A DNA stretch of 60,272 bases from Parcubacteria group bacterium GW2011_GWA2_36_10 (GCA_000991205.1 LBRC01000004.1:1-60272), one strand, 5' to 3'; counted from the stretch's first letter, positions 3,261 to 56,115 are shown. Numbers and translations are program-made. The notes: a model not told the origin generated them from the sequence alone.

Positions 3261-4802
<1,542 letters not shown>

Positions 4803-8496: not shown

Positions 8497-8602
8497 ACAT
8501 TGACTAAACTCTTTTTTAGTGATTTAATAATATTTGTCACTCTATTGCTAGCAACTTTCCTAAGGTAGGAAAGTGCCTTATACACAATCAGAGAGGTTCC
8601 TT

Positions 8603-8917
8603 ATGTCGGCAACTATTCGTGCATCTCTGCGCCATCATTTTCAACGGCGCCTGCATCCGAGTATTCAGCAAAACGGTGAGATCTTCACGGTGAAGATCGA
8701 GGTGGATCGTCTGCGTCTTCCCAAGCAGAGCGTGGCCGAAGCGCAACACAAACACAAGTGTTGCATCTTCGATAGCACTCACCTGACCATGGAAGGCACA
8801 CACGAGGATCTTTCTGCGTGCATCGTTTTTCTCGCTGAAAACGAAGAGAATCCCTTGAGGCAAGCCGGTGCTCGTGATGGACGTGGCAGGGTGCCGAAGT
8901 CCGCTGTGCTTCGTTAA
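8603..8917 (+). CDS. Orphan 104-aa protein in a GC3-rich cassette (A1)
   Basis: ATG at 8603 lies 6 nt after GAGAGG (the ORF track starts it at 8573). Codon usage is unlike the flanks (ctg, cgc, gtg, gcc). A hairpin terminator follows at 8938-8969. No family was recognised. Confidence 0.55.
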   Translation: MSATIRASLRHHFQRRLHPSIQQNGEIFTVKIEVDRLRLPKQSVAEAQHKHKCCIFDSTHLTMEGTHEDLSACIVFLAENEENPLRQAGARDGRGRVPKSAVLR

Positions 8918-8937
8918 GCACAACAAGTACATTCTCG

Positions 8938-8969
8938 CCCCCAGTCGCAATCGCGGCCGGGGGCTTTTC
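8938..8969 (+). terminator. Rho-independent terminator after A1
   Basis: GCCCCC...GGGGGC stem followed by TTTT. Confidence 0.6.
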
Positions 8970-9057
8970 ATTTTGTTGACTGAAAATCTTTTTTCTGCCA
9001 AAATGAATATTTGCTGAACCTTTTCATTGTGTGTGCAAAAACAAAAGGGAGCCTGAC

Positions 9058-9423
9058 ATGTCTTCACCCGATGCCTGCGAAAGCTTGCGGCAAGCTATCG
9101 TCAAAAAACTTGGCCACAGGGGGGCAAAGATTTTCTTTGGCGTTAGTTTGACCACCGTAGGCAAGCAAGATGCTTTTAGCTTGCGTATACCTAGACAATC
9201 TTTGCGCTTAGTAGAAAGTGATATAGCCAAAATACCCAAGGAAGCCGGCATGGTCATTGGCCATGGTAGCCGTGATAATTTACGTATCGCCGGTACTATC
9301 AGTGGCATCTTGGCGGCCGTGGATTTTTTACTGGAGCATGGTCATTTGCTCTTGCTACCAGCTACAGAGCCGAAGCCACGTGTTCAGAAAAAGCACGATC
9401 CTAAGCAGTTGAAAGCTCTCTAG
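9058..9423 (+). CDS. Orphan 121-aa protein in a GC-enriched cassette (A2)
   Basis: ATG at 9058 lies 6 nt after AAGGGAG (the ORF track starts it at 9031). A terminator follows at 9433-9464. Composition is intermediate between A1 and the backbone. No family was recognised. Confidence 0.55.
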   Translation: MSSPDACESLRQAIVKKLGHRGAKIFFGVSLTTVGKQDAFSLRIPRQSLRLVESDIAKIPKEAGMVIGHGSRDNLRIAGTISGILAAVDFLLEHGHLLLLPATEPKPRVQKKHDPKQLKAL

Positions 9424-9432
9424 CACATCACG

Positions 9433-9464
9433 CCCCTGGCTGCATCCGCGGTCAGGGGTTTTTT
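9433..9464 (+). terminator. Rho-independent terminator after A2
   Basis: CCCCTGGC...GGTCAGGGG stem followed by TTTTTT. Confidence 0.65.
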
Positions 9465-9470
9465 ACTGGA

Positions 9471-9708: not shown

Positions 9709-10101
9709 ATGGAACAAACTAACACTTGTAATTTCGGTGAACATTTGACTATCGATGGTTATCAAGGTAGCGAAGAAAAATTAAATAACCAAGCTTTAGT
9801 TCTAAATTGTTTGAACGAATTACCCAGCTTACTTGGTATGCACCATTTAGCTGCGCCGGAGGTTTATTTTGCCAAAGGCAATGATTTAAAAGACCCTGGG
9901 GGTTGGAGTGGCTTCGTGGTGATCGAAGAAAGCCACATTAGTATTCACACTTTTCCAGCCAAGCATTTTGTGAGCATCGATGCTTACACTTGTCGTAATG
10001 GCATGGATTGTGATTTCATTGTTAACTACTTTAAAAAAGTCTTTGACTTAAAAGAAGTGGAAACTAATTTTATTAAACGCGGTACGCATTTTCCGCTATA
10101 A
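9709..10101 (+). CDS. speD: S-adenosylmethionine decarboxylase proenzyme (small pyruvoyl type)
   Basis: 130 aa. VIEESHISIHTFP contains the E-S self-cleavage site typical of the small bacterial/archaeal AdoMetDC family. Confidence 0.8.
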   Translation: MEQTNTCNFGEHLTIDGYQGSEEKLNNQALVLNCLNELPSLLGMHHLAAPEVYFAKGNDLKDPGGWSGFVVIEESHISIHTFPAKHFVSIDAYTCRNGMDCDFIVNYFKKVFDLKEVETNFIKRGTHFPL

Positions 10102-17590: not shown

Positions 17591-17675
17591 GCCGAAGTGG
17601 TGAAATTGGTAGACACGCACGACTCAAAATCGTGTGACGCGAGTCATGTGGGTTCGAGTCCCACCTTCGGTACCA
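17591..17675 (+). tRNA. tRNA-Leu (anticodon CAA), CCA encoded
   Basis: Acceptor GCCGAAG/CTTCGGT, anticodon arm CACGA-CTCAAAA-TCGTG, long variable arm, T-loop GGTTCGAGT. Confidence 0.9.
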
Positions 17676-17678
17676 GAA

Positions 17679-17755
17679 GGCAGGGTAGCTCAGTTGGTTA
17701 GAGCGTAGGACTCATAAGCCTGAGGTCGTGGGTTCGATCCCCACCCCTGCTACCA
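17679..17755 (+). tRNA. tRNA with CAU anticodon, elongator type (Met, or Ile2 if lysidine-modified), CCA encoded
   Basis: Acceptor GGCAGGG/CCCTGCT, D-stem GCTC/GAGC (Y11:R24), anticodon loop CTCATAA, T-arm GTGGG-TTCGATC-CCCAC. Confidence 0.85.
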
Positions 17756-17856
17756 TTCGACTACGTTCTGCTTTGCAGAACTTCGCTCATGGTCTTCGAC
17801 CGCTTTTGTTTACATAACAAATAAGTCGAATGTCCTGAGCGCAGCCGAAGGGCATT
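17756..17856. repeat. tRNA-trailer palindromic element, copy 1
   Basis: It starts right after the CCA with TTCGACT and carries the conserved block TTCGCTCATGGTCTTCGACC (17782-17801). CATTCGACT (17754-17762) pairs with AGTCGAATG (17824-17832). Confidence 0.75.
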
Positions 17857-17865
17857 TACTTTTAC

Positions 17866-17942
17866 GGGCCATTAGCTCAGTTGGCTAGAGCGCTTCCATG
17901 GCATGGAAGAGGTCAAGGGTTCAAGTCCCTTATGGTCCACCA
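17866..17942 (+). tRNA. tRNA-Ala (anticodon GGC), CCA encoded
   Basis: Acceptor GGGCCAT/ATGGTCC with the G3:U70 alanine identity pair, and anticodon arm CTTCC-ATGGCAT-GGAAG. Confidence 0.9.
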
Positions 17943-18022
17943 TTCGACTCGCTTTGCTCGCTCATGGTCTTCGACCAAAGTTGTTATAGCGAGGAGAGTG
18001 CTCTGAACGTAGTTGAAGGGCA
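17943..18022. repeat. tRNA-trailer palindromic element, copy 2 (degenerate)
   Basis: TTCGACT follows the CCA, with the conserved block TCGCTCATGGTCTTCGACC (17958-17976). The downstream CTGAACGTAGTTGAAGGGCAG is related to CTGAGCGCAGCCGAAGGGCAT of copy 1. Confidence 0.7.
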
Positions 18023-18046
18023 GACATCTAAAAAAGCTTGTCAAAG

Positions 18047-18075
18047 CGACATAGATTGTCTATACTGTGTTTAAG
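18047..18075 (+). promoter_or_regulatory. Candidate promoter for the downstream tRNA pair
   Basis: TTGTCA, 17-nt spacer, TATACT. The leader contains a perfect 20-nt palindrome CCTGCCTGCCGGCAGGCAGG (18098-18117). Confidence 0.5.
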
Positions 18076-18171
18076 CTTATTTTTATATCGTGAGATACCT
18101 GCCTGCCGGCAGGCAGGGAGCAGTTGAGCGATAGCTTTCTAAAGAGTTAAGGTTTATTATTTTTTACGCAT

Positions 18172-18247
18172 CGCGGGATAGAGCAGTTGGCAGCTCGCCA
18201 GGCCCATAACCTGGAGGTCGTCGGTTCGAGTCCGACTCCCGCTACCA
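18172..18247 (+). tRNA. tRNA-Met (anticodon CAU), initiator-like, CCA encoded
   Basis: 5' CGCGGGA and 3' TCCCGCT give an unpaired C1:U72. The D-stem GAGC/GCTC gives A11:U24. The anticodon arm is CCAGG-CCCATAA-CCTGG. Confidence 0.8.
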
Positions 18248-18362
18248 TTCGACTCATCGAGCTTCGCTCAATTCGCTCATGGTCTTTGACCAATAAATGA
18301 GTTTGTAATTTTTATTTTTAGTAAAGTCGAATGGTACCCCGAGTGTAATCGAGGGGTACCAT
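18248..18362. repeat. tRNA-trailer palindromic element, copy 3
   Basis: ACCATTCGACT (18244-18254, includes the tRNA CCA) is the exact reverse complement of AGTCGAATGGT (18325-18335). It carries the conserved block TTCGCTCATGGTCTTTGACC (18272-18291) and a terminal hairpin GGTACCCC...GGGGTACC (18333-18360). Confidence 0.8.
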
Positions 18363-18370
18363 TAGCCTAT

Positions 18371-18445
18371 TCCGGGATAGCTCAGTGGTAGAGCAGTTGA
18401 CTGTTAATCAATTGGTCGTGGGTTCGAATCCCCCTCCCGGAGCCA
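18371..18445 (+). tRNA. tRNA-Asn (anticodon GUU), CCA encoded
   Basis: Acceptor TCCGGGA/TCCCGGA, anticodon arm GTTGA-CTGTTAA-TCAAT, T-loop TTCGAAT. Confidence 0.88.
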
Positions 18446-27073: not shown

Positions 27074-27716
27074 ATGGGACGAGTAATAGCGATCGTCAAT
27101 CAAAAAGGTGGAGTGGGCAAAACCACGACCACTGTTAATTTAGCTGCTTATTTAGCTGAGGCTGGTAAGCGTGTTTTAGTGATAGATATTGACCCCCAGG
27201 GCAATGCTTCATCTGGTTTTGGCTTTGACACCAAGATTTTAACCCAAGGCCTTTATGAAGTCTTATTAGAGCCCCAGACCACTGTCCAGCAAGTCGTCAA
27301 GGCTCATAGTGATAATCTACACCTTTTACCTTCCACACCAGACTTGGCTGGTGCGGCCATTGATCTAGTCGGCCAACATAATAGAGAGTTTCGTTTGCGA
27401 GAAAATTTAAGAGAGGTGATCGATCTCTATGATTTTATTTTGATCGATAATCCGCCGTCTTTAGGCTTGCTGACTATCAATGGCTTAGTGGCCGCTAACA
27501 GTTTTGACTATGCATGACTCCAGAAATAAATTATCGCAAGCAGTTTTTGAAGAAATTTATCGTCACTTTCCGCATAAAATTTTTCGCTCGGTTATCCCGC
27601 GCAATGTCAAACTAGCCGAAGCACCGTCTTTTGGAAAAACTATCAGAGACTATGATCAGGGCTCACCAGGCGCTAGAGCTTATCGTCGTTTATCACAAGA
27701 AATCATCATTAGTTAA
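27074..27716 (+). pseudogene. parA: ParA/Soj ATPase, disrupted by an internal deletion plus frameshift
   Basis: The N-terminal part (27074..27517) has the deviant Walker A NQKGGVGKTTT up to LLTINGLVAANS. The C-terminal part, in another frame (27504..27716), resumes at LTMHDSRNKL...IPRNVKLAEAPSFG. About 38 conserved residues between the two are missing. Confidence 0.8.
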
Positions 27717-27730
27717 AAATACAAACAAAT

Positions 27731-28469
27731 ATGTCAAGTTTAGGCAGAGGTTTGGGGTCATTGATCCCTAATAAAAAAATAAGCTACGCAGAAGATGTAA
27801 ATACGGCAGCAGCTCAAGATCAAGATAAAATAAGTGGTGAAAGAATTCAATACATTGATGTTAATTTGATCAAAACGAAAGCGTCGTCTACGCGCCGCGA
27901 AATTATTAAATATGTCTGAAGTGCCAGTGATAGTCCGCTTGGCTTCTGATAAAGATAAGCTAGAATTATCCATCATTGAAAACGTCCAGCGTCATAATCT
28001 CAATCCCTTAGAGGAAGCCGAGAGCTATCGTCGGCTAGAAGAGGAGTTTGGTCTGACTCGTGAGCAAATTTCTGAACAGGTAGGACGCAGTGCCGCCACA
28101 GTAGCTCAATATTTACGTATTTTAAAATTACCGATTGTGATCCAAGAAGCTTTACGAGACAACCAAATCACTTTTTCTCATGCCAAAGCCATCGTCGGCT
28201 ATCCCAGTAAACTGGAGCAGATAAAAATCTTTAAAAAGATTTTAGACAGCAATCTTAGCGTCCATCAGCTAGAAGATCTTGGTAAAAAGAAGGCTGATAA
28301 AATAAAAGAAGAAGCCGCCAAAGATCCGATCCTTACTTCTTGGGAAGATAGACTAAGCCGTAATCTAGGAGCTAAAGTGAAGATCATGAAACATGCTGAT
28401 AAAGGCTCAATCAAAATAGACTTTTTCTCGCATGAAGAATTAAGAAATATTTTAGAGAAATTAAGTTAG
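27731..28469 (+). pseudogene. parB: ParB/Spo0J, disrupted by an internal deletion plus frameshift
   Basis: GRGLGSLI N-terminus in one frame. From about 27873 a second frame reads KRKRRLRAAKLLNMSEVPVIVR...ENVQRHNLNPLEEA and the HTH. The ParB box I / QPR region and the block before GERR are missing. Confidence 0.8.
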
Positions 28470-28962: not shown

Positions 28963-29204
28963 AATTCCTGGTCGCTAAACCCATGTAATGGGAACGAGAG
29001 TCTGACCCGCTCTCTTTTTTTATTCTAAAAAATAAGATAACAAAAACAACCCGACGGGTAACCCGTCGGGTTGATCAAGTTTTTTGTTTTATTTTGGCCA
29101 AAAAATCGACCTCGAAGGTCGATTTCACCTGCGAGGTGGTTATTAGTTTAAGACAAACAAAACCCCCGGCGGATGCCGGGGGTTTTAAAAAAATAATGAA
29201 TTTT

Positions 29205-45189: not shown

Positions 45190-45271
45190 GTACCCCCTCT
45201 GTCGCTTTCCCGGCATCCGCCGGGAAACGCGCCTTCTCCCCCTAATTTAGGGGGAGACCGAGAGGGGGTAC
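45190..45271. repeat. Nested compound palindrome (three-way-junction-like)
   Basis: The outer stem GTACCCCCTCT (45190-45200) / AGAGGGGGTAC (45261-45271) encloses two hairpins: TTTCCCGG...CCGGGAAA (45206-45227) and TCTCCCCC...GGGGGAGA (45235-45257). Confidence 0.8.
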
Positions 45272-46483: not shown

Positions 46484-47365
46484 ATGGCTAAAATACTTAG
46501 TGCTTTTAATAAGATAAACTCTCTGCGAGAGAGGTATTATCAGGCTTCCAATGGTCAGGACGCTCTTATTTTGTTGTTGGCTGAAGCGGAAGTTGCTGAA
46601 CAGGTATATAACTCAAATGCTATTGAAAACAGCACCTTGACTCTTGAAGAAACGGAAAAAATACTTTTGCAAATTGACTTAGATAGATTTATTACTGAAC
46701 GAGAAATTTTTGAAGCCAAGAATTTGGCGCGAGTCGTGTCTTATATAAATAAAAAAGCCAAAGAGAAAGAATTAAATTTAGATGTCATTTTATCGCTTCA
46801 TAAGATGTTACTGGCTAATATTCGTGACGATGTAGCTGGCAGATTTAGACGAATCAATGAATATGTTCGAGTCGGTAGTCATATTGCTCCTCAATCAGCT
46901 GAAGTAGTAGAGCGTTTGGAAAAAATGTTAGCTGATTACAATGCAGCTAGTCATGAAAATATTATCAAACGTATAGCGAAACTACACCTTGTTTTTGAAT
47001 ACACGCATCCCTTTATTGATGGCAATGGTCGCATTGGACGAGTGATTAATAATTATTTGTTAATCAGAGAGGGTTTTGTGCCAATCAATATTAAGTTTAT
47101 TGATAGACAAAAATATTATGCAGCCTTTAGAGAATTCGATATCAAAGGCTCAACGCTAGTGATGGAGGAAATAGTTGCCAAAGCCTTGACTAATAGTTAT
47201 CACAAAAGATTGGCTTATCTTGAGGGTAAAAAAATAATTACTTTACTTGATTATGCCAAAATTAATAAAATATCTCACTCGAATTTAATTAATAAAGCAC
47301 ACAGACAAACCATTGAAGCTTTTTTAGAAAAAAATATTTGGAAAATTGGTGTTGCTAATAAATAA
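46484..47365 (+). CDS. fic: Fic-domain protein (class II, N-terminal inhibitory helix)
   Basis: Fic motif HPFIDGNGRIGR, plus the N-terminal inhibitory motif SNAIEN, which matches [ST]xxxE[GN]. Confidence 0.88.
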   Translation: MAKILSAFNKINSLRERYYQASNGQDALILLLAEAEVAEQVYNSNAIENSTLTLEETEKILLQIDLDRFITEREIFEAKNLARVVSYINKKAKEKELNLDVILSLHKMLLANIRDDVAGRFRRINEYVRVGSHIAPQSAEVVERLEKMLADYNAASHENIIKRIAKLHLVFEYTHPFIDGNGRIGRVINNYLLIREGFVPINIKFIDRQKYYAAFREFDIKGSTLVMEEIVAKALTNSYHKRLAYLEGKKIITLLDYAKINKISHSNLINKAHRQTIEAFLEKNIWKIGVANK

Positions 47366-47377
47366 GAGAAGAAAAGT

Positions 47378-47707
47378 ATGAAAATAGACGTAACAAAAAA
47401 ACAATATTGGGATCTCATGCGTGGTATGTATATGGCAGATTGGGTGGCGAATGCAATTTGCGAGGCTGATATGAAGCGGGATGAGGATATAAAGGAAACT
47501 CGTAATTACATCTTTTCTTTTGCGAAAGAGATGGGACTTGAGAGGTATGTAGAATATGATAAGGAACTGGGAGAATATTTCGCAACTTTTGATATGGATG
47601 ACGAGTCAGTGACGCGTTCACTCATAGAGCGATTTGAAGAACATTCTGCTTGGGATGAGTTGAGTAGTTGGCTTGGTGATCGTGATTTTTTTATTAAAAA
47701 TAGATGA
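47378..47707 (+). CDS. Small acidic protein downstream of fic, unknown function
   Basis: 109 aa starting 12 nt after the fic stop. No family was recognised. Confidence 0.5.
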   Translation: MKIDVTKKQYWDLMRGMYMADWVANAICEADMKRDEDIKETRNYIFSFAKEMGLERYVEYDKELGEYFATFDMDDESVTRSLIERFEEHSAWDELSSWLGDRDFFIKNR

Positions 47708-47939
47708 AAATAAAAAATAATGATATCAAATTATTATTTTTTGTCAATCCTACTTCCGTGGAGTTTTATAGAATATAAAAGTAATTGATTTGCGGATAAC
47801 CATTTTCACCGTTTGGGGAAAATGGTAAAATTTAACTGGATTTGATTTTTAAGCAAATTTTCTAATGTCTAGCATACTAACACAAGATGTTTGACTTTTT
47901 GACATCAAAGTTGTAATATTATAACATAAAGATAAATAT

Positions 47940-48623
47940 ATGGGTAATCAATATTTTAAACTTATCAAAGATCTAAGAATTAAAAAAGGTTTTAAGCAAG
48001 GAGATCTAGCAGAAAAATTAGGCATTGCTCGCACCTCTTATCTTTCTTTTGAGCAGGGTAAAACCGAGTTAAATTTTTCACAAATTGTAAAATTAGCAGA
48101 TTTGCTAGGAATTTCTTTAGAAGAAGTAGAAAGTGGCTCACAAGCAGATTATGAGAAGTACAAAGAAATGATTTTGGCTTATATCCGTAAAGGTTCTGAC
48201 ACTGACGGTAGTATTCTCAAAACTAAATTAGCCAAAATGTTATACTTAGCTGACTTTGCTTGGTTTTATGAAAATCTCCAAAGCATGAGTGGTATGCAGT
48301 ACCGTCGTATCAAGTATGGTCCTGTGCCAGACATGTATTTTCGAGCCATAGATGATTTAGAATCTAGCGGCAAGATTAATATCAGCCATAAAGGCGAGAT
48401 GCTTTTGATTTCTGAGAATCGTGGCTCACAAAAACAAAAGTTAGAAAAATTGTCTAAAGCAGAAATTACCTTGATAGATAAAATCGCTAAAAAATGGAAA
48501 GACAAAAAAACTGCCGAGATAGTTGATTTTACTCACAACCAGTTACCTTATAAAATTTGTGTACCAGATGAAATAATTCCTTATGAACTGATCACACAAG
48601 AAGATCCGGAGTATGTCTACTAA
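47940..48623 (+). CDS. XRE-type HTH fused to a Panacea (DUF4065/SocA-like) antitoxin domain
   Basis: N-terminal HTH (QGDLAEKLGIARTSYLSFEQGK). The C-terminal LAKMLYLADFAWFYENLQSMSGMQYRRIKYGPVP is the DUF4065 pattern. Confidence 0.7.
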   Translation: MGNQYFKLIKDLRIKKGFKQGDLAEKLGIARTSYLSFEQGKTELNFSQIVKLADLLGISLEEVESGSQADYEKYKEMILAYIRKGSDTDGSILKTKLAKMLYLADFAWFYENLQSMSGMQYRRIKYGPVPDMYFRAIDDLESSGKINISHKGEMLLISENRGSQKQKLEKLSKAEITLIDKIAKKWKDKKTAEIVDFTHNQLPYKICVPDEIIPYELITQEDPEYVY

Positions 48624-49005
48624 ATATACAGTTTTAGTGGAAGCTTTTGCACAGCGCCATTTTATCAAAAAATTTGAAAAGAAATATAAGCAAGCTTGGA
48701 ATATTACCTGGAGGGCCATGTTGGAGCAATGGAAAAGAATGGATTTGCTACTTACTACTTCGGTGGCAGAAACAATTATTGATGTTGAAAATTTAAAAAT
48801 TATCAAAACTGAATTTCGTGTCGCTGGTACCAAACAATCACGTAAAGGCTCTGGTAATCGCTGTATTGTGGCTGTAGATAAAAAAACTTGTGTAGTAAAT
48901 GTACTTTTGGTTTATCACAAAGATGATTTGGGTCACGGCCATGAAACGGCTCAATGGCAAAAAATCATTAGAGATAATTATTCCCAATATCAGAATTTAT
49001 TTTAA
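48613..49005 (+). CDS. Candidate toxin partner, RelE/HigB-like fold suspected
   Basis: 130 aa overlapping the antitoxin gene by 11 nt. KGSGNRCIVAV...VNVLLVYHKDDL resembles the GKSGGxRxIY...LLxIYxK pattern of RelE/HigB-type toxins. Confidence 0.5.
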   Translation: MSTKYTVLVEAFAQRHFIKKFEKKYKQAWNITWRAMLEQWKRMDLLLTTSVAETIIDVENLKIIKTEFRVAGTKQSRKGSGNRCIVAVDKKTCVVNVLLVYHKDDLGHGHETAQWQKIIRDNYSQYQNLF

Positions 49006-49440: not shown

Positions 49441-52065
49441 ATGGAAAAAATAGTTTTCAAAACTTGTGAGGCCTGTGGGGGTAGCGGTGAGGCTGGCTCG
49501 CCTTGCGGCGGAGCGGGCGGACGTAAATGTCCAGCTTGCTTTGGGGCTAAGTGTTTTTTTGTAGAGAATAACAATTTTTATTATTGGCAAAAATTAATCA
49601 ATCGTTCTAGCATTATCGTGCGAGAGACGAGAGAGATTATCGATCTGGTGATCAATGGTTTGTTGATCATGGGTGCTTTGTCTTCAGTTTATTTGGTTTA
49701 TAAAATATTGAATCAAGTGGAGTTTGATCCACGCAATCTGATTACTTTTTTGAGCACTCCCGGTAAAAATAATCTCTGGCTGATGGTTTTGGTAGTGGTA
49801 AATATGTATCTCTATTATCGTCTGGCTATTCCGGCGCAAAAACAAAAAGCGATTAAACAAAAGTTAGCAGACGAACAAGTATTTTTTAAATATAATATTG
49901 CTGAAAGTTTAAACCAAGAAACCGAGTGGATGCTAGACCGAGCCTGGCTTTATGCTTTGCGTAAAGGTGTCTGGCCAGTGACCGTCTGGCATTTACTTTT
50001 TGTGTTATTAGAAGATAAAGATGTCAAAGTAGTGCTAGCACGCTTGGGAGTCGGAGCACAGAATTTACAGCAAATCATTGATCAACGCTTAGCAGATTTG
50101 GTCGCCAAAAATACGCCAGGCGAGTTGAGTAGAGCCGAAAAACTAGATTTGACAACTGAAGTCAAAAACGTGATTTTGTTTGCTTATCATCATGCGATCA
50201 AAATAAGACATAGTGAAAAAATAGAGGAAATAGATTTGTTGGCTGGCTTGACGCAAGTCAGTGAGGCTATTAAAGACTTTTTTTATGATTTTGATATCGA
50301 TGAAAACAAAGTGGACAATGTCATTGCCTGGATGGATATCAATGTCAAGCTAGTAGAAAATTATCGTCGCTATCGCGGGCGGGCTTTATTTAAGCCTAAG
50401 TCAGGTATCAATCGCTCTTATACTGCCATTGCTACGCCGGTCTTAAATAGTTTTTCTGAAGATTTGACTTTGGCTGCTAAGTCTGGACTTTTGTCTTTGG
50501 TAGTTGCTCGCGATAAAGAAATCAAAGAAATCATTGACGCCATGGAAAGCAATTTGGACTCGGTGATTTTAGTCGGCCCGGGCGGTACTGGTAAGACAAA
50601 CATAGTACAGGCGATTGCCAATCTGATGATGGCCGAAGAAATGCCAGACATTTTCCAAGACAAACGTTTAGTTAGTTTATCGGTGCCAGCCCTAGTCTCT
50701 GGCGCAGGTCAACAAGGTAATTTAGAAGAAAGATTGATGGCGATGCTCAATGAAATAGCGGTGTCAGGTAATATTATTTTATTTATTGATAATATTCATA
50801 ATTTAGTAGGTGTCAGTTCGCAGGGCTCGGAAGGTTTAGATTTAGCCGAAGTCTTAGCCACTGCGGTCGCTGAAAAAAGTGTGATCTTGATCGCCACGAC
50901 GACCAATGAAGACTACATCAAGTATCTAGAAGGTAAACAGTTAGCGCAAGTTTTACGAAAAGTAAATATTTTAGAAACTGATAAAAATCAGACGATACAG
51001 ATATTAGAATCACATGTTGGCTATCTAGAAAATAAACACAAAATTTATTTTACTTATAATTCTTTAGAAAAGATTTTTGATTTAGCAGATCGCTATTTAC
51101 CTGATCAGCATTTACCCCAAAAAGCTTTGCAGATTTTAGAAGCCGTGGCCTTGCAAGTAGCTAAAAATAATCGTCAAGACAAATTGGTTCGCTCTGAAGA
51201 TGTAGCGGTCTATGTTTCAGGTATTACCAATATTCCTTTAACTACTATTTCCGCTGATGAGTCTAGTAAGCTATTAAATTTAGAGGCAGATATTCACCAG
51301 CGCGTGATTGGCCAAGATGAGGCGGTTAAACAGGTCTCGACAGCCTTACAGCGTGCTCGTGCAGAACTGCGAGATAAAAAACGTCCGATTGTGAATCTTT
51401 TGTTTTTGGGACCAACTGGTGTGGGTAAAACCGAGCTAGCTAAAGCTGTGGCCGAGAAATATTTTGGCAATGAAGAAAATATGATCCGCTTAGACATGTC
51501 GGAATACCAAAACCAAGATAGTGATATTTTGAATGTTTTTTTACAAGTGATGGAAGACGGACGCTTAACTGATGCTTTGGGTCGCACGGTAGATTTTACC
51601 AATTTGATCATCGTTGTGACTTCCAATGCTGGTACTAGCTATATCCAAGAGCAAATTTCACAAGGCCGAAAAACCGAAGATTTCAAAGATGATTTAATTA
51701 AAAATAAATTGCAAGGTATTTTTCGGCCAGAGTTTTTAAATCGTTTTGATGGCGTGATTTTATTTAAGCCTTTGACTGAAGAAGAAATTTTTACTATAGC
51801 GGGCTTGATGCTCAATAAAGTCAAACAACGTTTAGAGCTAAAAGGTATTTTCTTTGAAGTCACCAAAGAAGCGCAGACAGAATTAGCTCAAGCTGGTTTT
51901 GATCCTGTTTTTGGCGCTCGACCATTAAGGCGAGTGATTCAAGAGCAAGTAGATAATGCTTTAGCGAAGTTTTTACTCCAAGGTAGTTTGAATCGGCGAG
52001 ATATTGTGGTTTATGATGTTGGTGGAGAGATTCGTGTCAAAAAAGCTTTGAGCTATAAAAATTAA
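49441..52065 (+). CDS. Clp/Hsp100-family AAA+ homolog with an N-terminal zinc finger and two TM segments; degenerate ATPase motifs
   Basis: CEACGGSG...CPAC finger, two hydrophobic helices, Clp_N-like repeats, NBD1 (GPGGTGKT; Walker B ILFIDNIH) and NBD2 (GPTGVGKT), with the block containing Walker B missing. ClpB D2-small tail. Confidence 0.8.
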   Translation: MEKIVFKTCEACGGSGEAGSPCGGAGGRKCPACFGAKCFFVENNNFYYWQKLINRSSIIVRETREIIDLVINGLLIMGALSSVYLVYKILNQVEFDPRNLITFLSTPGKNNLWLMVLVVVNMYLYYRLAIPAQKQKAIKQKLADEQVFFKYNIAESLNQETEWMLDRAWLYALRKGVWPVTVWHLLFVLLEDKDVKVVLARLGVGAQNLQQIIDQRLADLVAKNTPGELSRAEKLDLTTEVKNVILFAYHHAIKIRHSEKIEEIDLLAGLTQVSEAIKDFFYDFDIDENKVDNVIAWMDINVKLVENYRRYRGRALFKPKSGINRSYTAIATPVLNSFSEDLTLAAKSGLLSLVVARDKEIKEIIDAMESNLDSVILVGPGGTGKTNIVQAIANLMMAEEMPDIFQDKRLVSLSVPALVSGAGQQGNLEERLMAMLNEIAVSGNIILFIDNIHNLVGVSSQGSEGLDLAEVLATAVAEKSVILIATTTNEDYIKYLEGKQLAQVLRKVNILETDKNQTIQILESHVGYLENKHKIYFTYNSLEKIFDLADRYLPDQHLPQKALQILEAVALQVAKNNRQDKLVRSEDVAVYVSGITNIPLTTISADESSKLLNLEADIHQRVIGQDEAVKQVSTALQRARAELRDKKRPIVNLLFLGPTGVGKTELAKAVAEKYFGNEENMIRLDMSEYQNQDSDILNVFLQVMEDGRLTDALGRTVDFTNLIIVVTSNAGTSYIQEQISQGRKTEDFKDDLIKNKLQGIFRPEFLNRFDGVILFKPLTEEEIFTIAGLMLNKVKQRLELKGIFFEVTKEAQTELAQAGFDPVFGARPLRRVIQEQVDNALAKFLLQGSLNRRDIVVYDVGGEIRVKKALSYKN

Positions 52066-52069
52066 AGTC

Positions 52070-52098
52070 TTGACACTTAGCCTAAAAAGGCATAATAT
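52070..52098 (+). promoter_or_regulatory. Sigma70-type promoter of cassette D1
   Basis: TTGACA (52070-52075), 17-nt spacer, TAATAT (52093-52098), starting 5 nt after the Clp-like stop. Confidence 0.65.
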
Positions 52099-52231
52099 TA
52101 CTTAGTATTTTTTGATCTTTGACTTTGACAATGAAAAGATAGATAGATTTTCACCCTCAACTTTTAAAGCACACTTTGGAGGAAGTGTGATGTGTTCGAA
52201 ACAACTACCGGTCAACATGGAGGATCTTCCT

Positions 52232-52780
52232 ATGAAAGTCTTCCGACCATGGCTTCTCATCTCGGTGGCTTTGCTGTCGCTGACGATGAGTTGCCAGTCC
52301 ATCGCCTTGGCCAGTCCCATCTCTGGAAACAACGGACAGGCCAGCGATGACGCCACCCTGACGGCGGACATGCTCACCAGCACGCAGAATGTGCTGGCGG
52401 AAGAGCAGGACAACGGCCAACCGCAGACATTGCCTACCATGGAGGTGTCGCAAGTCTCCAAGGAACTGATGCTGACTGTGAATGGTTTTGCGGATTTCCT
52501 GGACTTCAGCGGCGACCTGACGATCCTGCCGATCAGCGCCAACCAGCCCTTTGATTTGCTGGGCATGACGGAGTGGATCGACAACTCGGTGACCCGGCCG
52601 GCCAGCTCCAACGATGAGATGATCACGGAGCAGGCGGCCACGATTCTCCCGGGCAACATCTTCACCTCAACGACGGCTGCCATCGGCGACAACGCGGTCT
52701 TTCGACCATCCAGCGGCAATCTGGCCTGTAGCATGACGCAGCTGGCCTCCAACGGCGCCAGGACCGACCACAACAGCTGA
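52232..52780 (+). CDS. Secreted orphan protein in a GC3-rich cassette (D1)
   Basis: ATG at 52232 lies 7 nt after GGAGGA and gives a canonical signal peptide MKVFRPWLLISVALLSLTMSCQSIALA. Alternative starts at 52190 (also behind GGAGGA) and 52112. A terminator follows at 52870-52899. No family was recognised. Confidence 0.6.
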   Translation: MKVFRPWLLISVALLSLTMSCQSIALASPISGNNGQASDDATLTADMLTSTQNVLAEEQDNGQPQTLPTMEVSQVSKELMLTVNGFADFLDFSGDLTILPISANQPFDLLGMTEWIDNSVTRPASSNDEMITEQAATILPGNIFTSTTAAIGDNAVFRPSSGNLACSMTQLASNGARTDHNS

Positions 52781-52869
52781 TCTGGGGCCAACATCCTTGA
52801 TACGGCTCTCAAGGTTGTATGGCTCCTAAAAAAACTATCCGTTCTTCATTGCTCATTCCGCTAACTCCG

Positions 52870-52899
52870 CGCGCGACCCATCTGGTGTCGCGCGTTTTT
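52870..52899 (+). terminator. Rho-independent terminator after D1
   Basis: CGCGCGAC...GTCGCGCG followed by TTTTT. It closely resembles the terminator at 54489-54520. Confidence 0.75.
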
Positions 52900-52992
52900 C
52901 TTTGTCTAATTAATTTTTATTAACTTGTCCCGGGTTTATCCCGGGACTTCTTTACTTTTTTACAATTTAATATATACTAAAGCTAGATGCCA

Positions 52993-53021
52993 TTGACAAA
53001 AATTCAACAATGTGATATGTT
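52993..53021 (+). promoter_or_regulatory. Sigma70-type promoter of cassette D2, with an overlapping palindrome
   Basis: TTGACA, 17-nt spacer, TATGTT. TGTGA-TATGT-TCACA (53011-53025) overlaps the -10 box. Confidence 0.65.
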
Positions 53022-53100
53022 CACATGAATTTTGTCTTGTGCAAAGCCCTTTGAAATCACAGAGTTCGTTCGAAAGAACAATCAACAAGGAGAGACTTCC

Positions 53101-54459
53101 ATGAAGAAGCGCATCACTTGGATTTTGGCCACGTTCGTGGCCATGCTCATCTGCCTGCGGCCGGCATCGGCCACTGTCATCAACGTCAACGCCGGCGGCA
53201 ACATCCAATCTGCCATCGACCAGACGGTCGAGGGAGACACGGTCGCAGTGCATGCAGGTACTTGGTCTGATATCAACATCTATCCGCCTCAACACGCCAT
53301 TGTTCTGTTGGCGGATCCCAATGTCTACATCAACAGCGGCACTGCTGTGTATCTGGCCGGTTCAGACACCACCAGTATCATGGATGGCTTCCATTTCACT
53401 GGCTTTTACGGCACGGCTGTGACTTTTCACAACGGTTCCGGCGCCACACTGCGCAATCTGGACATCAGTAGCAAGCCCATCAGCGGCATTTTCATCGGCC
53501 ATGACAGCTACGTCAAGCTGGAGAATATCCGCATTCATGATTGCCCGGGCGTCGCTATCTGGCCTTATTCTTCAGCTAGTTCGAGCTGGGGTTATGCCAA
53601 GGCCACAGCTTCGTATTTCGAGAACAATGGTGTAGCTGCACCGGCTCTGCTGCCAAGCATCGAAAATGGGCAACTCGTCTACTTGCCATACGAAGCTGAT
53701 CGTAGCGCCAATTTCGGCGCGGTGTGCTATATGAGTCTCGGCTCTGGCCAGATGGACTGGATCGACTGCTACATCATCACCAACAGCACCAACTATTTGG
53801 CAGGAGCGCTCTACGCTGGCAATACCGCCAACACCGATACCTGTTTCGCCAACATGAAGCAGTGCACGGTGATCGGCAACGCAACCGGCAATGAAGGCTC
53901 GGTCTTCTGGGGAGTCGGCAAGCATCGTCTGATGGTGGAAAACTGTTTGTTCATGAACAACAATGAGCAACAGCAGACCTTTGTCGGCAATACCCACTTC
54001 ACAGGAACCAATTTGGCCTGGCCAGGAAATCACGGCATCGTCGGTGCCCTGGTGGCTGATCCGCTTTTCTGCGATTTGGGTGCTGGTTACTATGTCGTCT
54101 CCAACTCACCTTGCTGGCCAGCCAATAACCCGTCCGGCAACCAGATCGGTGCTGTCGAGGGCGTGTGTACCTCCGTGGACACACGTAATTTGCCCGAAGC
54201 TTTCCAGCTGACGGCCTATCCGAATCCCTTCAACCCCTCGACCACGATCGGCTTCAACCTGACGAGGTCCGGCCTTGTCACACTGAACATCTACGACCTG
54301 GAAGGTCGTCTGGTGAAGACCCTTCTCAACGATGAGCAGCGACCAGCCGGCCTGAACAGCGTCAACTTCGACGCCAATGGCATGCCCACCGGCACCTACT
54401 TCTGTCGGCTGGAGACCAACGGCCAAACCACGACCAGCAAACTCTTGTTGGTCAAGTAG
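53101..54459 (+). CDS. Secreted right-handed beta-helix repeat protein with a T9SS-type C-terminal sorting domain (D2)
   Basis: ATG at 53101 lies 6 nt after AAGGAGAG. Signal peptide MKKRITWILATFVAMLICLRPASA. Repeats of about 22-25 aa rich in G, N and T (e.g. GATLRNLDIS, VKLENIRIHDC, MVENCLFMNN). The C-terminal tail is YPNPFNPSTTIGFNL..LVTLNIYDLEGRLVKTL...GTYFCRLETNG...KLLLVK. Confidence 0.7.
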   Translation: MKKRITWILATFVAMLICLRPASATVINVNAGGNIQSAIDQTVEGDTVAVHAGTWSDINIYPPQHAIVLLADPNVYINSGTAVYLAGSDTTSIMDGFHFTGFYGTAVTFHNGSGATLRNLDISSKPISGIFIGHDSYVKLENIRIHDCPGVAIWPYSSASSSWGYAKATASYFENNGVAAPALLPSIENGQLVYLPYEADRSANFGAVCYMSLGSGQMDWIDCYIITNSTNYLAGALYAGNTANTDTCFANMKQCTVIGNATGNEGSVFWGVGKHRLMVENCLFMNNNEQQQTFVGNTHFTGTNLAWPGNHGIVGALVADPLFCDLGAGYYVVSNSPCWPANNPSGNQIGAVEGVCTSVDTRNLPEAFQLTAYPNPFNPSTTIGFNLTRSGLVTLNIYDLEGRLVKTLLNDEQRPAGLNSVNFDANGMPTGTYFCRLETNGQTTTSKLLLVK

Positions 54460-54488
54460 AACTCTGTGAGGAGAGATTGCTCTCCATC

Positions 54489-54520
54489 GCGCGCGACCAC
54501 CCCTGTGGTCGCGCGCTTTT
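54489..54520 (+). terminator. Rho-independent terminator after D2
   Basis: 12-bp stem GCGCGCGACCAC / GTGGTCGCGCGC with a 4-nt loop, followed by TTTT. Confidence 0.8.
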
Positions 54521-54726
54521 CTTTTTGTAAAAGATGAGAAATAAGGGCTTTTGTCAATATTGCTAAAAGTATTGATATTAGTTATAATTTTAGTGGTTTT
54601 TACGCTTCAATAATGAAATAAGATTGAGCGGAACCCCGGCGAATGCCGGGGTAAACCTCAAGGAAAAAATCATTGAGCGTAATCCCGCTTTGCGGGATTA
54701 TAATAATAATTCTGGATTAATTTTTT

Positions 54727-56115
54727 ATGGAAAATGAACGAAAATTTGATAAAGTAGTAGCCCTAGCAAAAGCTAGAGGATTTGTTTTTCCTTCGTCAGA
54801 AATTTATGGCGGCTTAGGCTCTATTAATGACTACGGCCCTTTAGGGGTAGAGCTCAAAAATAACATCAAAAAAGCTTGGTGGGACTTTATGTTAAGTCAC
54901 CGCAATATCGTTGGTTTAGATTCTGGTATTTTGATGCACCCAAAGATCTGGGAAGCTTCCGGTCATGTAGCTGGCTTTTCTGATCCTTTAGTTGATTGTA
55001 AAAAATGCAAAAGCCGTTTTCGCGCTGATCATTTACTGGAAAGTTTAGGTATCAAGCCTGACTTTAGTCCGGGATCTAAAATAGACATGAAAAAATTAGC
55101 TTGTCCAGAATGTAAAGGTGAGCTGACCGATGTCAGACAATTTAATCTGATGTTTAAGACTTTTATTGGTCCAGTAGAAAATCAGGCCAATCAAGTTTAT
55201 TTACGTCCCGAAACTGCCCAAGGTATTTATGTCAATTTCTTAAATGTCAAAGACAGTATGCGCCTAAAAGTACCTTTTGGTATTGCCCAAATCGGCAAAG
55301 CTTTCCGTAATGAAATCACACCGGGCAATTTTATTTTCCGCATGCGTGAATTTGAACAAATGGAAATGCAGTATTTTGTGGAAGCCAAAGATAGCATGAA
55401 AGCTTTCCAAACTTGGCAAGATTTACGTAAGTCCTGGTATTTATCTTTGGGAATCAATGAAAAAAATTTACGTTTTAGAGAACATGCTAAGGATGAGTTA
55501 GCGCACTATGCTAAGGCCGCTGTCGATATCGAATACAACTTTGGTTTTTCTGAAAACGAAGTTTTCAAAGAGCTAGAGGGTGTTCATCATCGTGGTGATT
55601 GGGATCTGGCTCGTCATCAAGAATACTCTGGTCAGAAATTGACTGTCAAAGATGAAGATAACAAAGACTATTTACCAAATGTCGTCGAGACCTCTATCGG
55701 GGCTGACCGTGCCTTTTTAGCTTTTATGCTGGAAGCTTATACCGAGATTGAAGGTGGAAGAACGACCACGACTGAAAGTAATAAAGCCAAAGAAGTGGTC
55801 TTAAAACTTCATCCAAGATTAGCGCCGATTAAAATCGCTATTTTGCCTTTGTCTAAAAAAGACAATCTGTCAGCTAAAGCGGAAAGTATTTATGCCGAGC
55901 TAAGCAAATCTTATCGCGTACAATATGATGAAACGGGCTCGATCGGGAAACGTTATCGTCGCCAAGACGAAATCGGCACGCCATATTGTCTCACCGTTGA
56001 TTTCGATACTTTGGAAAATAATAAAGTGACAGTCAGAGACAGGGATACGATGAAGCAAGATTTAGTTGATATCGCTGAACTCAAAGCTTATTTTTTAGAA
56101 AAATTTAACTTTTAA
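54727..56115 (+). CDS. glyQS: Glycyl-tRNA synthetase (alpha2 dimeric type)
   Basis: 462 aa. Class II motifs (FRNEITPGNFIFRMREFEQME, GADR) and an anticodon-binding C-terminus. Confidence 0.92.
   Translation: MENERKFDKVVALAKARGFVFPSSEIYGGLGSINDYGPLGVELKNNIKKAWWDFMLSHRNIVGLDSGILMHPKIWEASGHVAGFSDPLVDCKKCKSRFRADHLLESLGIKPDFSPGSKIDMKKLACPECKGELTDVRQFNLMFKTFIGPVENQANQVYLRPETAQGIYVNFLNVKDSMRLKVPFGIAQIGKAFRNEITPGNFIFRMREFEQMEMQYFVEAKDSMKAFQTWQDLRKSWYLSLGINEKNLRFREHAKDELAHYAKAAVDIEYNFGFSENEVFKELEGVHHRGDWDLARHQEYSGQKLTVKDEDNKDYLPNVVETSIGADRAFLAFMLEAYTEIEGGRTTTTESNKAKEVVLKLHPRLAPIKIAILPLSKKDNLSAKAESIYAELSKSYRVQYDETGSIGKRYRRQDEIGTPYCLTVDFDTLENNKVTVRDRDTMKQDLVDIAELKAYFLEKFNF

Follow-up and report, generated by a model that had tools for sequence, protein, structure and literature searches.

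The type A sorting domain of type IX secretion systems (T9SS) is described as confined to Bacteroidota and the wider FCB group (Fibrobacterota, Chlorobiota and Bacteroidota), and as coupled to the T9SS machinery. Such tails work in the diderm periplasm, where they require PorV, SprA and PorU, and T9SS organisms typically carry many proteins with this C-terminal domain (CTD). Here we describe a homologue of the domain at the end of the product of one of two genes (gene 1 and gene 2) in an island that separates clpC from glyS in Parcubacteria group bacterium GW2011_GWA2_36_10, a member of the candidate phyla radiation (CPR). The island lies on contig UR94_C0004, which was analysed over its whole length of 60,272 bp and is referred to below as the window. 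Like the type A cargo proteins RgpB of P. gingivalis, mirolase of T. forsythia and RemA of F. johnsoniae, the gene 2 product combines an N-terminal Sec signal peptide and a passenger with an 80-aa terminal Ig-like beta-sandwich carrying PNPFNP, GxY and K-x-x-x-x-K motifs. Unlike these, it belongs to a CPR organism with a genome of about 1 Mb that is placed among monoderms, and its locus contains a single CTD protein with hypervariable N-terminal coils, whose gene has a high G+C content at third codon positions (GC3) within an AT-rich genome. We know of no T9SS in CPR cells.

Two further groups of proteins resemble parts or all of the gene 2 product. Polysaccharide lyase family 6 (PL6) alginate lyases, chondroitinase B and phage capsule depolymerases share with it the beta-helix, an Asn ladder and the cap motif ..IQ.AID....GDT..V..G.Y, and the cap matched BcAlyPL6 at profile level (E 6e-7). 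The gene 2 product differs from them in that identity is about 10-14% and the template modelling (TM) score 0.2-0.35, without family-level membership; it is monomer-sized and has no phage context. Generic FCB-type proteins of uncultured bacteria (P0004, P0240, P0241, P0250, P0251, P0259 and P0268) have the same three-part layout of signal peptide, beta-helix and CTD in about 440-550 aa, and share the pre-tail junction DP.FCD..gdY.L...SPC.P.NN..G..iGA. They are, however, only 26-33% identical to the gene 2 family (96-137 bits, where the CPR family itself reaches 360-840 bits), and they are not located at the clpC-glyS site.

As a locus, the island can be compared with hypervariable surface-antigen loci placed between conserved genes, such as the E. 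coli O-antigen locus (galF-gnd) and the pneumococcal cps locus (dexB-aliA). Shared properties are the conserved flanks, a persistently atypical composition, presence or absence of the insert, allele replacement, and allele classes that occur across lineages. The cargo of the island is one or two exported proteins and not a glycan-synthesis operon, the island is GC-richer than its genome whereas antigen loci are AT-richer, and the organisms are CPR. By analogy, it is these antigen loci that the dynamics of the island would most resemble.

Architecture of the gene 2 protein

Gene 2 (53101-54459) encodes 452 aa made up of a Sec signal peptide, a right-handed beta-helix and a T9SS type A C-terminal Ig-like domain (Table 1). 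In profile searches the tail hit TIGR04183 (46.3 bits, cutoff 23) and PF18962 (45.7 bits, cutoff 27) over residues 373-449 of 452, and the passenger hit Beta_helix (PF13229; 28.3 bits, cutoff 25.9); the score against Chondroitinas_B, 13.7 bits, was under the cutoff of 24. A first-pass annotation of the window, made by reading the sequence without database searches, had proposed a signal peptide, beta-helix-like repeats and a type A sorting tail for this open reading frame (ORF), and all three were recovered, the signal peptide in the translation and the other two in the profile searches and in the structural comparisons described below. These domain assignments put gene 2 in the type A CTD family and the beta-helix superfamily, but they do not qualify it as a T9SS substrate, as the accompanying machinery is expected to be missing.

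The tail is the most conserved segment of gene 2. Residues P374-N375-P376-F377-N378-P379, G431, Y433, K447, L450 and K452 are invariant in the five family members, and in comparison with the homologue at locus L018, from a sister lineage, the proportions of nonsynonymous and synonymous differences (pN/pS) were 0.03/0.22, a pattern by which the tail is judged to be under purifying selection. The signal peptide was modelled as a helix over residues 2-18 and is 92% identical to that of L018, with a pS of 0.06. Three invariant cysteines lie near the end of the passenger.

An AlphaFold (AF2) model was built from a 13-sequence alignment and had a mean predicted local distance difference test (pLDDT) score of 75.6, with values of 85-94 at residues 31-170. 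It consists of a right-handed beta-helix, a poorly modelled linker and a beta-sandwich of six strands (380-387, 391-398, 404-414, 417-424, 431-439 and 442-450; pLDDT about 73-86). A first model contained an extra short strand at 370-372. The tail agrees with the Ig-like sandwich of CTDs, a fold of seven strands, at moderate model confidence. In Foldseek searches of the PDB, the tail matched the CTD of mirolase (8qb1; target-normalized TM-score, TMt, 0.60-0.62; root mean square deviation 2.8-3.0) and the CTDs of translocon-bound T9SS substrates (8gl8_D, TMt 0.68; 8glk_D, TMt 0.52). The top matches of the passenger were all beta-helix proteins, namely phage tailspike and tail-fibre depolymerases and PL6 lyases, with E values of 1e-4 to 1e-3.

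No ORF of at least 120 aa within the window matched a T9SS component family, in agreement with the first-pass annotation, which had seen no such component and had taken the backbone for that of a CPR-type cell. The tail hidden Markov model found exactly one CTD-bearing ORF in the window and exactly one in each related locus (about 60 kb of related loci). In the literature searched, no paper connected T9SS sorting domains with CPR, Patescibacteria or Parcubacteria, and the sole prior trace of such a tail in CPR was an automatic NCBI product name on a homologue from Nomurabacteria.

A compositional island at one site in a Parcubacteria clade

The two genes lie in a genuine compositional island between the gene for a ClpC-type AAA+ chaperone (clpC, 49441-52065) and that for glycyl-tRNA synthetase (GlyRS; glyS, 54727-56115). 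The GC content in 500-nt windows was 0.46-0.58 over 52001-54500, to which it rises from about 0.37-0.39 between these two genes, and about 0.30-0.44 in the flanks, and GC3 of gene 2 was 0.70 (for gene 1, see Table 1), compared with 0.317 ± 0.051 (maximum 0.50) for 45 backbone ORFs of the window, giving z-scores of 9.7 for gene 1 and 7.6 for gene 2. The preferred codons change from backbone to island for Leu (TTA 49% to CTG 52%), Ile (ATT 50% to ATC 86%), Ala (GCT 52% to GCC 51%), Gly (GGT 45% to GGC 65%) and Thr (ACT 52% to ACC 44%); every one of these shifts had been listed in the first-pass annotation, and its hand count of 33 G+C among the 60 nucleotides of 53101-53160 was exact. The noncoding segments within the island are AT-rich (GC 0.36-0.40), as are the internal promoters that the same annotation had taken as a sign of residence. 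The island shows the classical marks of a genomic island, an anomalous composition and a vacant site in a close relative (L022). It is not a classical integrative island, as it contains no integrase or transposase ORF, has no direct repeats at its flanks and has no tRNA target, the closest tRNA being more than 33 kb distant.

The island is truly resident in this genome. Five further contigs (L002, L003, L004, L014 and L015), which come from separate assemblies of different samples and carry four styles of contig name (scaffold_, NODE_..cov, k127_/k141_ and Ga0...), cover the whole island and both junctions without N at 99.4-100% identity; an identical gene 2 protein is encoded by nine contigs and the adjacent GlyRS by 23. 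The first-pass annotation had considered an assembly chimera, which would join a fragment from a GC-rich organism to a CPR contig. The sharp step in composition and the breaks of several assemblies within gene 1 would fit such a chimera; against it stand the five gap-free contigs across both junctions, the same layout in four other lineages from other sites, the coincidence of the gene 1 breaks with a real allelic polymorphism, and the insertion of lineage-specific, backbone-type hairpins within the island. We regard the probability of a chimera as negligible.

Related loci were found through gene 2 homologues (L018 and L019) and by using the conserved glyS promoter as a DNA pattern (L020, L022 and L023); the 36-nt pattern was identical in L018, L019/L021, L020, L022 and L023. 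In L018, a Logan assembly, clpC and glyS flank a gene for a protein 65% identical to the gene 2 product of the window, and a homologue of gene 1 lies upstream of it. In L019, an 842-kb contig of a Candidatus Nomurabacteria metagenome-assembled genome, the gene 2 protein is 41% identical and occupies the same place, followed by an unrelated small GC-rich lipoprotein gene, with none before it; no homology was detected between gene 1 and this lipoprotein gene. L020 (Patescibacteria Gw_Eff_bin_26) carries gene 2 alone (42% identical) between clpC and glyS, and L023 is a contig end on which only the glyS side and the tail of a P0125-like allele are visible. L022 (LaPlata bin-459) represents the empty site, in which the clpC stop is followed by about 45 nt with a terminator of its own and then by the same GTAAAAGATGAGAAATAAG..glyS promoter sequence, so that clpC and glyS are about 200 bp apart in all. 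Gene 2 is intact (445-457 aa) in the four lineages with the whole gene in DNA, and a fifth full-length member, P0125, has 459 aa. The GC3 of the island genes is 0.66-0.91 in every carrier, and that of clpC and glyS beside them 0.28-0.35. Within one Parcubacteria clade, at least five lineages thus have gene 2 and a homologous promoter at this site.

The GlyRS identities grouped the window with L018 (97%), followed by L022 (94%), and L020 with L023 (95%), with L019 as the outgroup (81-84%). As the carriers include the outgroup L019, the history with the fewest events is a single gain, in the common ancestor, and one loss, in L022. The first-pass annotation had implied a recent, private acquisition in the form of two separate cassettes. 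This picture did not hold, since at least four other Parcubacteria lineages have gene 2 at the clpC-glyS site and one close relative is without it. The shared site, the homologous promoter and the lack of a near donor indicate, therefore, an old, clade-wide variable locus that recombines, and not a fresh import.

The size of the family was determined by an exhaustive HMMER search, in which the gene 2 family profile was compared with 1.84 billion sequences that represent about 15 billion proteins, the same groundwater samples included. Only four clusters at the 50% identity level scored above 360 bits over the full length: P0002, P0003 and P0126, which are the proteins of the clpC-glyS loci L018, L019 and L020, and P0125, which is a close match to the last 45 residues encoded by the gene that ends just upstream of the L023 glyS promoter. 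Next below were giant multi-repeat proteins with at most 260 bits, and proteins of similar size with the generic signal peptide, beta-helix and tail layout at about 135 bits. A word search with the passenger alone returned the window protein (P0001) and its L018 homologue P0002, and nothing else. The closest tails with a name came from Ignavibacteriota, Calditrichota, Balneolaceae and Bacteroidota, and the best outside homologue of the passenger end and tail, P0004 (33% over 243 aa), is encoded on a contig of 68% GC. These labels and the GC-rich contig of P0004 point to an FCB-type diderm with many T9SS cargos as the probable ultimate source of gene 2. The search for a donor lineage thus yielded broad FCB labels, and no donor closer than about 260 bits; a recent one is not visible.

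Gene 1 corresponds to UR94_C0004G0055 in GenBank, where it starts at an alternative ATG at 52190 (196 aa). Its translation begins with a signal peptide, MKVFRPWLLISVALLSLTMSCQSIALA followed by SP, as had been read in the first pass. The protein had no family match in Pfam or NCBIfam, and its only relatives among 5.8 billion proteins were four that appear to be alleles of gene 1 itself. The core of the gene (about 52332-52759) is polymorphic within the population: allele B (P0122-type; P0122-P0124, and positions 1-360 of contig L005) has identical ends and a core that is about 50% identical, and in L005 it lies directly upstream of a gene 2 identical to that of the window. Several assemblies break or show N-gaps at 52332-52759, because the allele polymorphism makes bubbles in the assembly graph.

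Table 1. Features of the island and of its right border, numbered from the first nucleotide of the window
Feature	Position	Strand	Description
Whole island	52066-54516	+	2.45-kb insert, from the clpC stop codon (52065) to the shared TTTT..GTAAAAGATGAGAAATAAG before the glyS promoter
Promoter P1 of gene 1	52070-52098	+	TTGACA-17-TAATAT; conserved in L018
Gene 1	52232-52780	+	182-aa exported protein (predicted); GC3 0.81
Intrinsic terminator T1	52868-52903	+	CGCGCGCGACC..GTCGCGCG and T-run; hairpin 52868-52894; -19.9 kcal/mol, z -5.3
Window-lineage insertion	52900-52950	+	About 47 nt; carries GC palindrome GTCCCGGG-TTTAT-CCCGGGAC at 52927-52947
Promoter P2 of gene 2	52993-53021	+	TTGACA, 17 nt, extended -10 TGaTATGTT
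Gene 2 signal peptide (Sec)	53101-53172	+	24 aa, cleavage after ASA; taken from translation, MKKRITWILATFVAMLICLRPASA followed by TV
Gene 2 beta-helix passenger	53173-54195	+	Right-handed parallel beta-helix; PF13229
Hypervariable first coils of gene 2 (N1 segment)	53173-53430	+	aa 25-110, allele-class segment
T9SS type A C-terminal domain homologue of gene 2	54217-54456	+	aa 373-452; PNPFNP, GTYF and KLLLVK motifs
Intrinsic terminator T2	54488-54526	+	Near copy of T1, T-run after; hairpin 54488-54516; -26.2 kcal/mol, z -7.2
glyS promoter	54551-54588	+	TTGCTA-17-TATAAT; conserved backbone sequence directly right of the island

Mosaic alleles, transcription signals and neighbouring features

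Comparison of the window with L018 revealed that the locus is a mosaic. The backbone proteins of the two are 92-97% identical, with a synonymous divergence (dS) of 0.58-0.68. Several parts of the island are younger than this, namely gene 1 (dS 0.11), the signal-peptide codons of gene 2, the P2 region (96-97% nucleotide identity), and the tail with the terminator (pS 0.22, 94-96%). The second half of the gene 2 passenger is backbone-like (pS about 0.56), and gene 2 codons 31-180 are saturated, with 30% amino acid identity, pS 0.56-0.92 and pN 0.34-0.57. Nucleotide identity over gene 1 and the P2 region was 94-98%, and over clpC and glyS 82-93%.

When the five gene 2 family members were compared by segment, the N1 segment of the window was 46% identical to that of L020 and 19% to that of its sister L018, and the N1 segment of L023 was 55% identical to that of L019 and 31% to that of its sister L020. 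The tail identities fit the species tree (window-L018 92%, L020-L023 71%). Within one population, moreover, the two gene 1 alleles adjoin an identical gene 2. The signal peptide, tail and terminator thus follow the backbone phylogeny or are even younger, and the first beta-helix coils and the gene 1 core are discrete alleles that cross lineage boundaries. The N1 groupings against the species tree and the two gene 1 alleles indicate, therefore, that allele classes have been exchanged by recombination between lineages.

Diversification by a diversity-generating retroelement was considered and rejected: the region 51900-54750 contains no repeat pair longer than 28 nt that could represent a template and variable repeat, and no reverse transcriptase family was found among the window ORFs. 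The pattern of variation also excludes it, as whole segments are replaced in the N-terminal coils, in contrast to the adenine-specific point changes in a C-terminal region that such an element would produce. A phage or mobile-element origin was likewise set aside, since the family profile matched viral contigs of IMG/VR in the tail only, and an integrase, direct repeats and an adjacent tRNA are all absent. As a separate observation, ClpC of L020 is just 64% identical to that of the window, while the GlyRS identity is 91%, which hints at recombination or allele replacement extending into clpC of L020.

Each island gene is preceded by its own promoter of the TTGACA-17-TAnnnT type and its own ribosome-binding site and is followed by a strong terminator, as the first-pass annotation had described, and the two genes are therefore predicted from these signals to be transcribed independently. 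P1 and P2 are both predicted near-consensus sigma-70-type promoters. GGAGG at 52219-52223 would serve gene 1, a second GGAGG at 52178 fits the alternative ATG at 52190, and AAGGAG at 53087-53092 would serve gene 2. Downstream of P2 lies an AT-rich 5' untranslated region (UTR) of about 75 nt. The P2 region and this UTR are homologous in all four lineages where they are readable, and TTGACA...TGnTAnnnT, the pattern of a strong extended -10 promoter, is invariant. The first pass had also recognized the two terminators as near copies; they are 82% alike across 28 nt, and the CGCGCGCGAC..GTCGCGCG hairpin motif occurs in the 60-kb window in T1 and T2 only (0 expected by chance). T2 stands where the empty site has the clpC terminator.

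The GC palindrome downstream of T1, which folds at -17.3 kcal/mol, had been put forward as a backbone-type element inside the island. The insertion that bears it is missing at the same place in the sister lineage L018, and related CCCGG..CCGGG hairpins occur in the backbone at 29165, 45209 and 54635, in agreement with that suggestion.

Further palindromic elements were observed at and around these signals. An inverted repeat TGTGA-N5-TCACA lies on the -10 element of P2 (53006-53025) and is also present in L019 (about 9908-9926), with different arms (CTCGTG..CACGAG), and in L020 (minus strand, about 4442-4456). It is not claimed as the operator of a regulator, as the extended -10 (TGnTAnnnT) accounts for the invariant bases, and an operator function is conceivable. 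The glyS leader (54600-54700) contains two tandem variants of a hairpin unit 49 nt apart, ..ATTGAGCGGAACCCCGGCGAATGCCGGGG.. and ..ATTGAGCGTAATCCCGCTTTGCGGGAT.., of which L022 has one and L018 none. CCCGG-N-CCGGG hairpins are found elsewhere in the backbone (29165-29180 and 45209-45224), which suggests that these units belong to a short hairpin repeat, mobile or expandable.

A second, milder GC-rich patch (8550-9465, GC 0.46-0.50) was found between a PPDK/PEP-synthase-like gene and tRNA-Ser. It contains two small plus-strand ORFs, 8603-8917 (GC3 0.55) and 9058-9423 (GC3 0.48), neither of which has a Pfam family. Each of the two is preceded by an AT-rich region of its own that resembles a promoter, and each has a GC hairpin and T-run (8938-8966 and 9431-9462). 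The patch has the same cassette look as the main island, and its layout recurs in six other assemblies. The GC bump at 17.5-18.5 kb is caused by a cluster of five tRNA genes (17591-18445; Leu-CAA, Met, Ala-GGC, Met and Asn), and an Rfam search over the window returned six tRNAs and nothing else. A second variable spot lies 3-5 kb from the island (46484-49005), between tgt and a 122-aa gene upstream of clpC. It encodes a Fic-domain protein, a protein with helix-turn-helix and SocA/Panacea antitoxin-like features and two small unknown ORFs; L018 has other small genes there and L019 has none.

Several genes of the window contig may be incomplete. Between 51522 and 51523 in clpC, the window is without 114 nt (38 codons) found in L018 and in all other same-population assemblies, so that ClpC has 874 aa here and 912 aa elsewhere; the likely cause is that sequence was collapsed or deleted in the original GW2011 contig. 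The GroEL ORF (3273-4802, 509 aa) aligns in its best stretch with the Cpn60 profile from position 165 onwards only, and the protein has 543 aa in other assemblies; the gene may have a disrupted or wrongly set start in this contig. A ParA-like ORF (27074-27517, 147 aa) matches positions 2-142 of the 177-position AAA_31 profile, and a ParB ORF (27912-28469), about 400 nt away, is without its N-terminal domain. Frameshifts or assembly errors may have shortened both ORFs.

Origin and possible role of the locus

We consider it probable, with moderate confidence, that gene 2 encodes an anciently captured FCB-type surface protein that has been repurposed as a variable, exported glycan-binding or glycan-cleaving protein. 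The ancestor of the clade would have taken up a gene for a surface protein of the type exported by T9SS in FCB-group diderms; the gene would have gained a native promoter, and the locus would have turned into a recombining and diversifying exported-protein locus, which one lineage lost. In a monoderm CPR cell, the protein would be found at or beyond the cell surface after Sec export. There the beta-helix may bind or cut a glycan, most plausibly on the host cell of an epibiont, with the variable first coils setting glycan specificity; the conserved tail would have been retained as an Ig module for folding, stability or anchoring and not as an outer-membrane export signal. The diversifying pattern would point to a changing partner, for example a host envelope or a phage. 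The view of the first-pass annotation that this is a horizontally acquired, possibly repurposed surface protein is thus upheld as to foreign composition and residence, and is not upheld as to a recent private import.

Several observations weigh against this account. The small accessory ORFs are not homologous between lineages, for which repeated capture is a better fit than single descent. The TM-scores of the passenger in Foldseek are just those quoted above for the lyases, which is fold-class similarity and no more, and its sequence-level matches in the PDB are confined to the generic N-terminal cap, namely 7dmk, a PL6 lyase (E 6.4e-7, query 33-123), and, more weakly, 8tne, a pectinesterase (E 9e-4). 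The absence of T9SS components holds for the 60-kb window alone, and the role in host interaction is purely our inference. Composition is a further difficulty. Amelioration was estimated from backbone fourfold-degenerate sites in conserved codons only, an estimate that is rough and noisy near saturation. The mismatch between strong and weak base classes was 0.43 for window and L019, the maximum being 0.45, and therefore about 20% of an initial compositional excess is expected to survive per lineage. A gene with 100% GC at fourfold-degenerate sites at the split of window and L019 should accordingly now be at 0.48 or less, and the island genes are at 0.69-0.88. A single ancient capture with neutral amelioration afterwards is therefore at odds with these values, and an extra force, such as selection, biased conversion or re-import, is needed.

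Translational selection is an unlikely cause of the high GC3, as GroEL in the window has a GC3 of 0.30 and the favoured codons (CTG, ACG and GCC) are simply GC-rich. GC-biased gene conversion is unlikely as the sole cause, since the shift from 0.3 to 0.8 is very large, the composition changes abruptly at the clpC stop and at the glyS promoter, and the promoters inside the island are still AT-rich. Repeated import does not fit either, as the gene 2 proteins form a closed family, share a promoter and have tails that follow the backbone tree. The genes of the locus all remain at GC3 0.66-0.91, although backbone synonymous sites were randomized over the same divergence, a contrast for which none of these causes is a likely explanation on its own.

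Repeated import is nevertheless the main competitor of the ancient-capture account. The clpC-glyS site would be a recombination hotspot into which each lineage independently and recently captured GC-rich genes from high-GC FCB-type donors, possibly their hosts, and the genes, being recent, would therefore not be ameliorated. This would suit the GC3 values in every lineage despite near-saturated fourfold sites in the backbone, the unrelated accessory ORFs on different sides of gene 2, the parts of the island that are younger than the backbone, and the 68% GC contig of the nearest outside homologue. It is hard to reconcile with a closed family of five gene 2 proteins, which exceed 360 bits among themselves while nothing outside exceeds 260 bits, with an AT-rich promoter and 5' UTR that are homologous in four lineages, with tail identities that track the backbone tree, and with gene 2 alleles that diverged anciently (pN about 0.4) and yet all lie at one site. 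We consider this scenario rather unlikely, though it deserves more weight than the other alternatives. An inert relic, in which the tail and perhaps the whole proteins are functionless leftovers of an old transfer drifting neutrally in the CPR cell, is improbable. Such a relic would agree with the lack of a known T9SS in CPR, with the absence of families for gene 1 and the other small ORFs, and with the loss of the island in one lineage; it ought, however, to have ameliorated and decayed, and gene 2 is instead intact in four lineages and in the full-length P0125 matching L023, has a conserved near-consensus promoter, and has in its tail, with motif residues invariant in five sequences, its most conserved part.

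That the clade has an outer membrane and a T9SS, possibly a divergent one, which exports the gene 2 product in the canonical way, appears very improbable. The tail seems to be under purifying selection and has kept all type A motifs, and CTD proteins are reported to co-occur, in Bacteroidota almost strictly, with T9SS core genes (PMC10202324). On the other side, CPR have been placed within a monoderm clade (bioRxiv 10.1101/2021.05.31.446380), the ORFs searched in the 60-kb window gave no T9SS family match, the CTD-bearing ORF is single in the window and in the related loci, and gene 2 is compositionally foreign. A different possibility is that the tail is a working signal without a T9SS: it could mediate a form of surface attachment so far unrecognised in monoderm CPR, or mimic a T9SS substrate and dock onto PorV and the T9SS of a diderm FCB host, in which case GC3 could be host-like and be kept so by selection or by re-sampling from hosts in an allele-shuffling arms race. 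We regard this as doubtful, about on a par with the inert relic, and continue to prefer ancient capture and repurposing.

CPR/Patescibacteria are thought to live attached to hosts, and very few proteins for host interaction are known. The locus is a concrete candidate, as it is sharply bounded, strongly promoted by prediction, fixed in position and diversifying in sequence, and the combination of fixed position and diversifying sequence is the signature expected for a determinant of host contact or phage contact. That a T9SS type A domain appears to be kept by purifying selection in a lineage counted among the monoderms invites the question which further functions it may have. Moreover, an unameliorated locus beside a backbone with randomized synonymous sites offers a clean natural test of the forces that act on synonymous composition.

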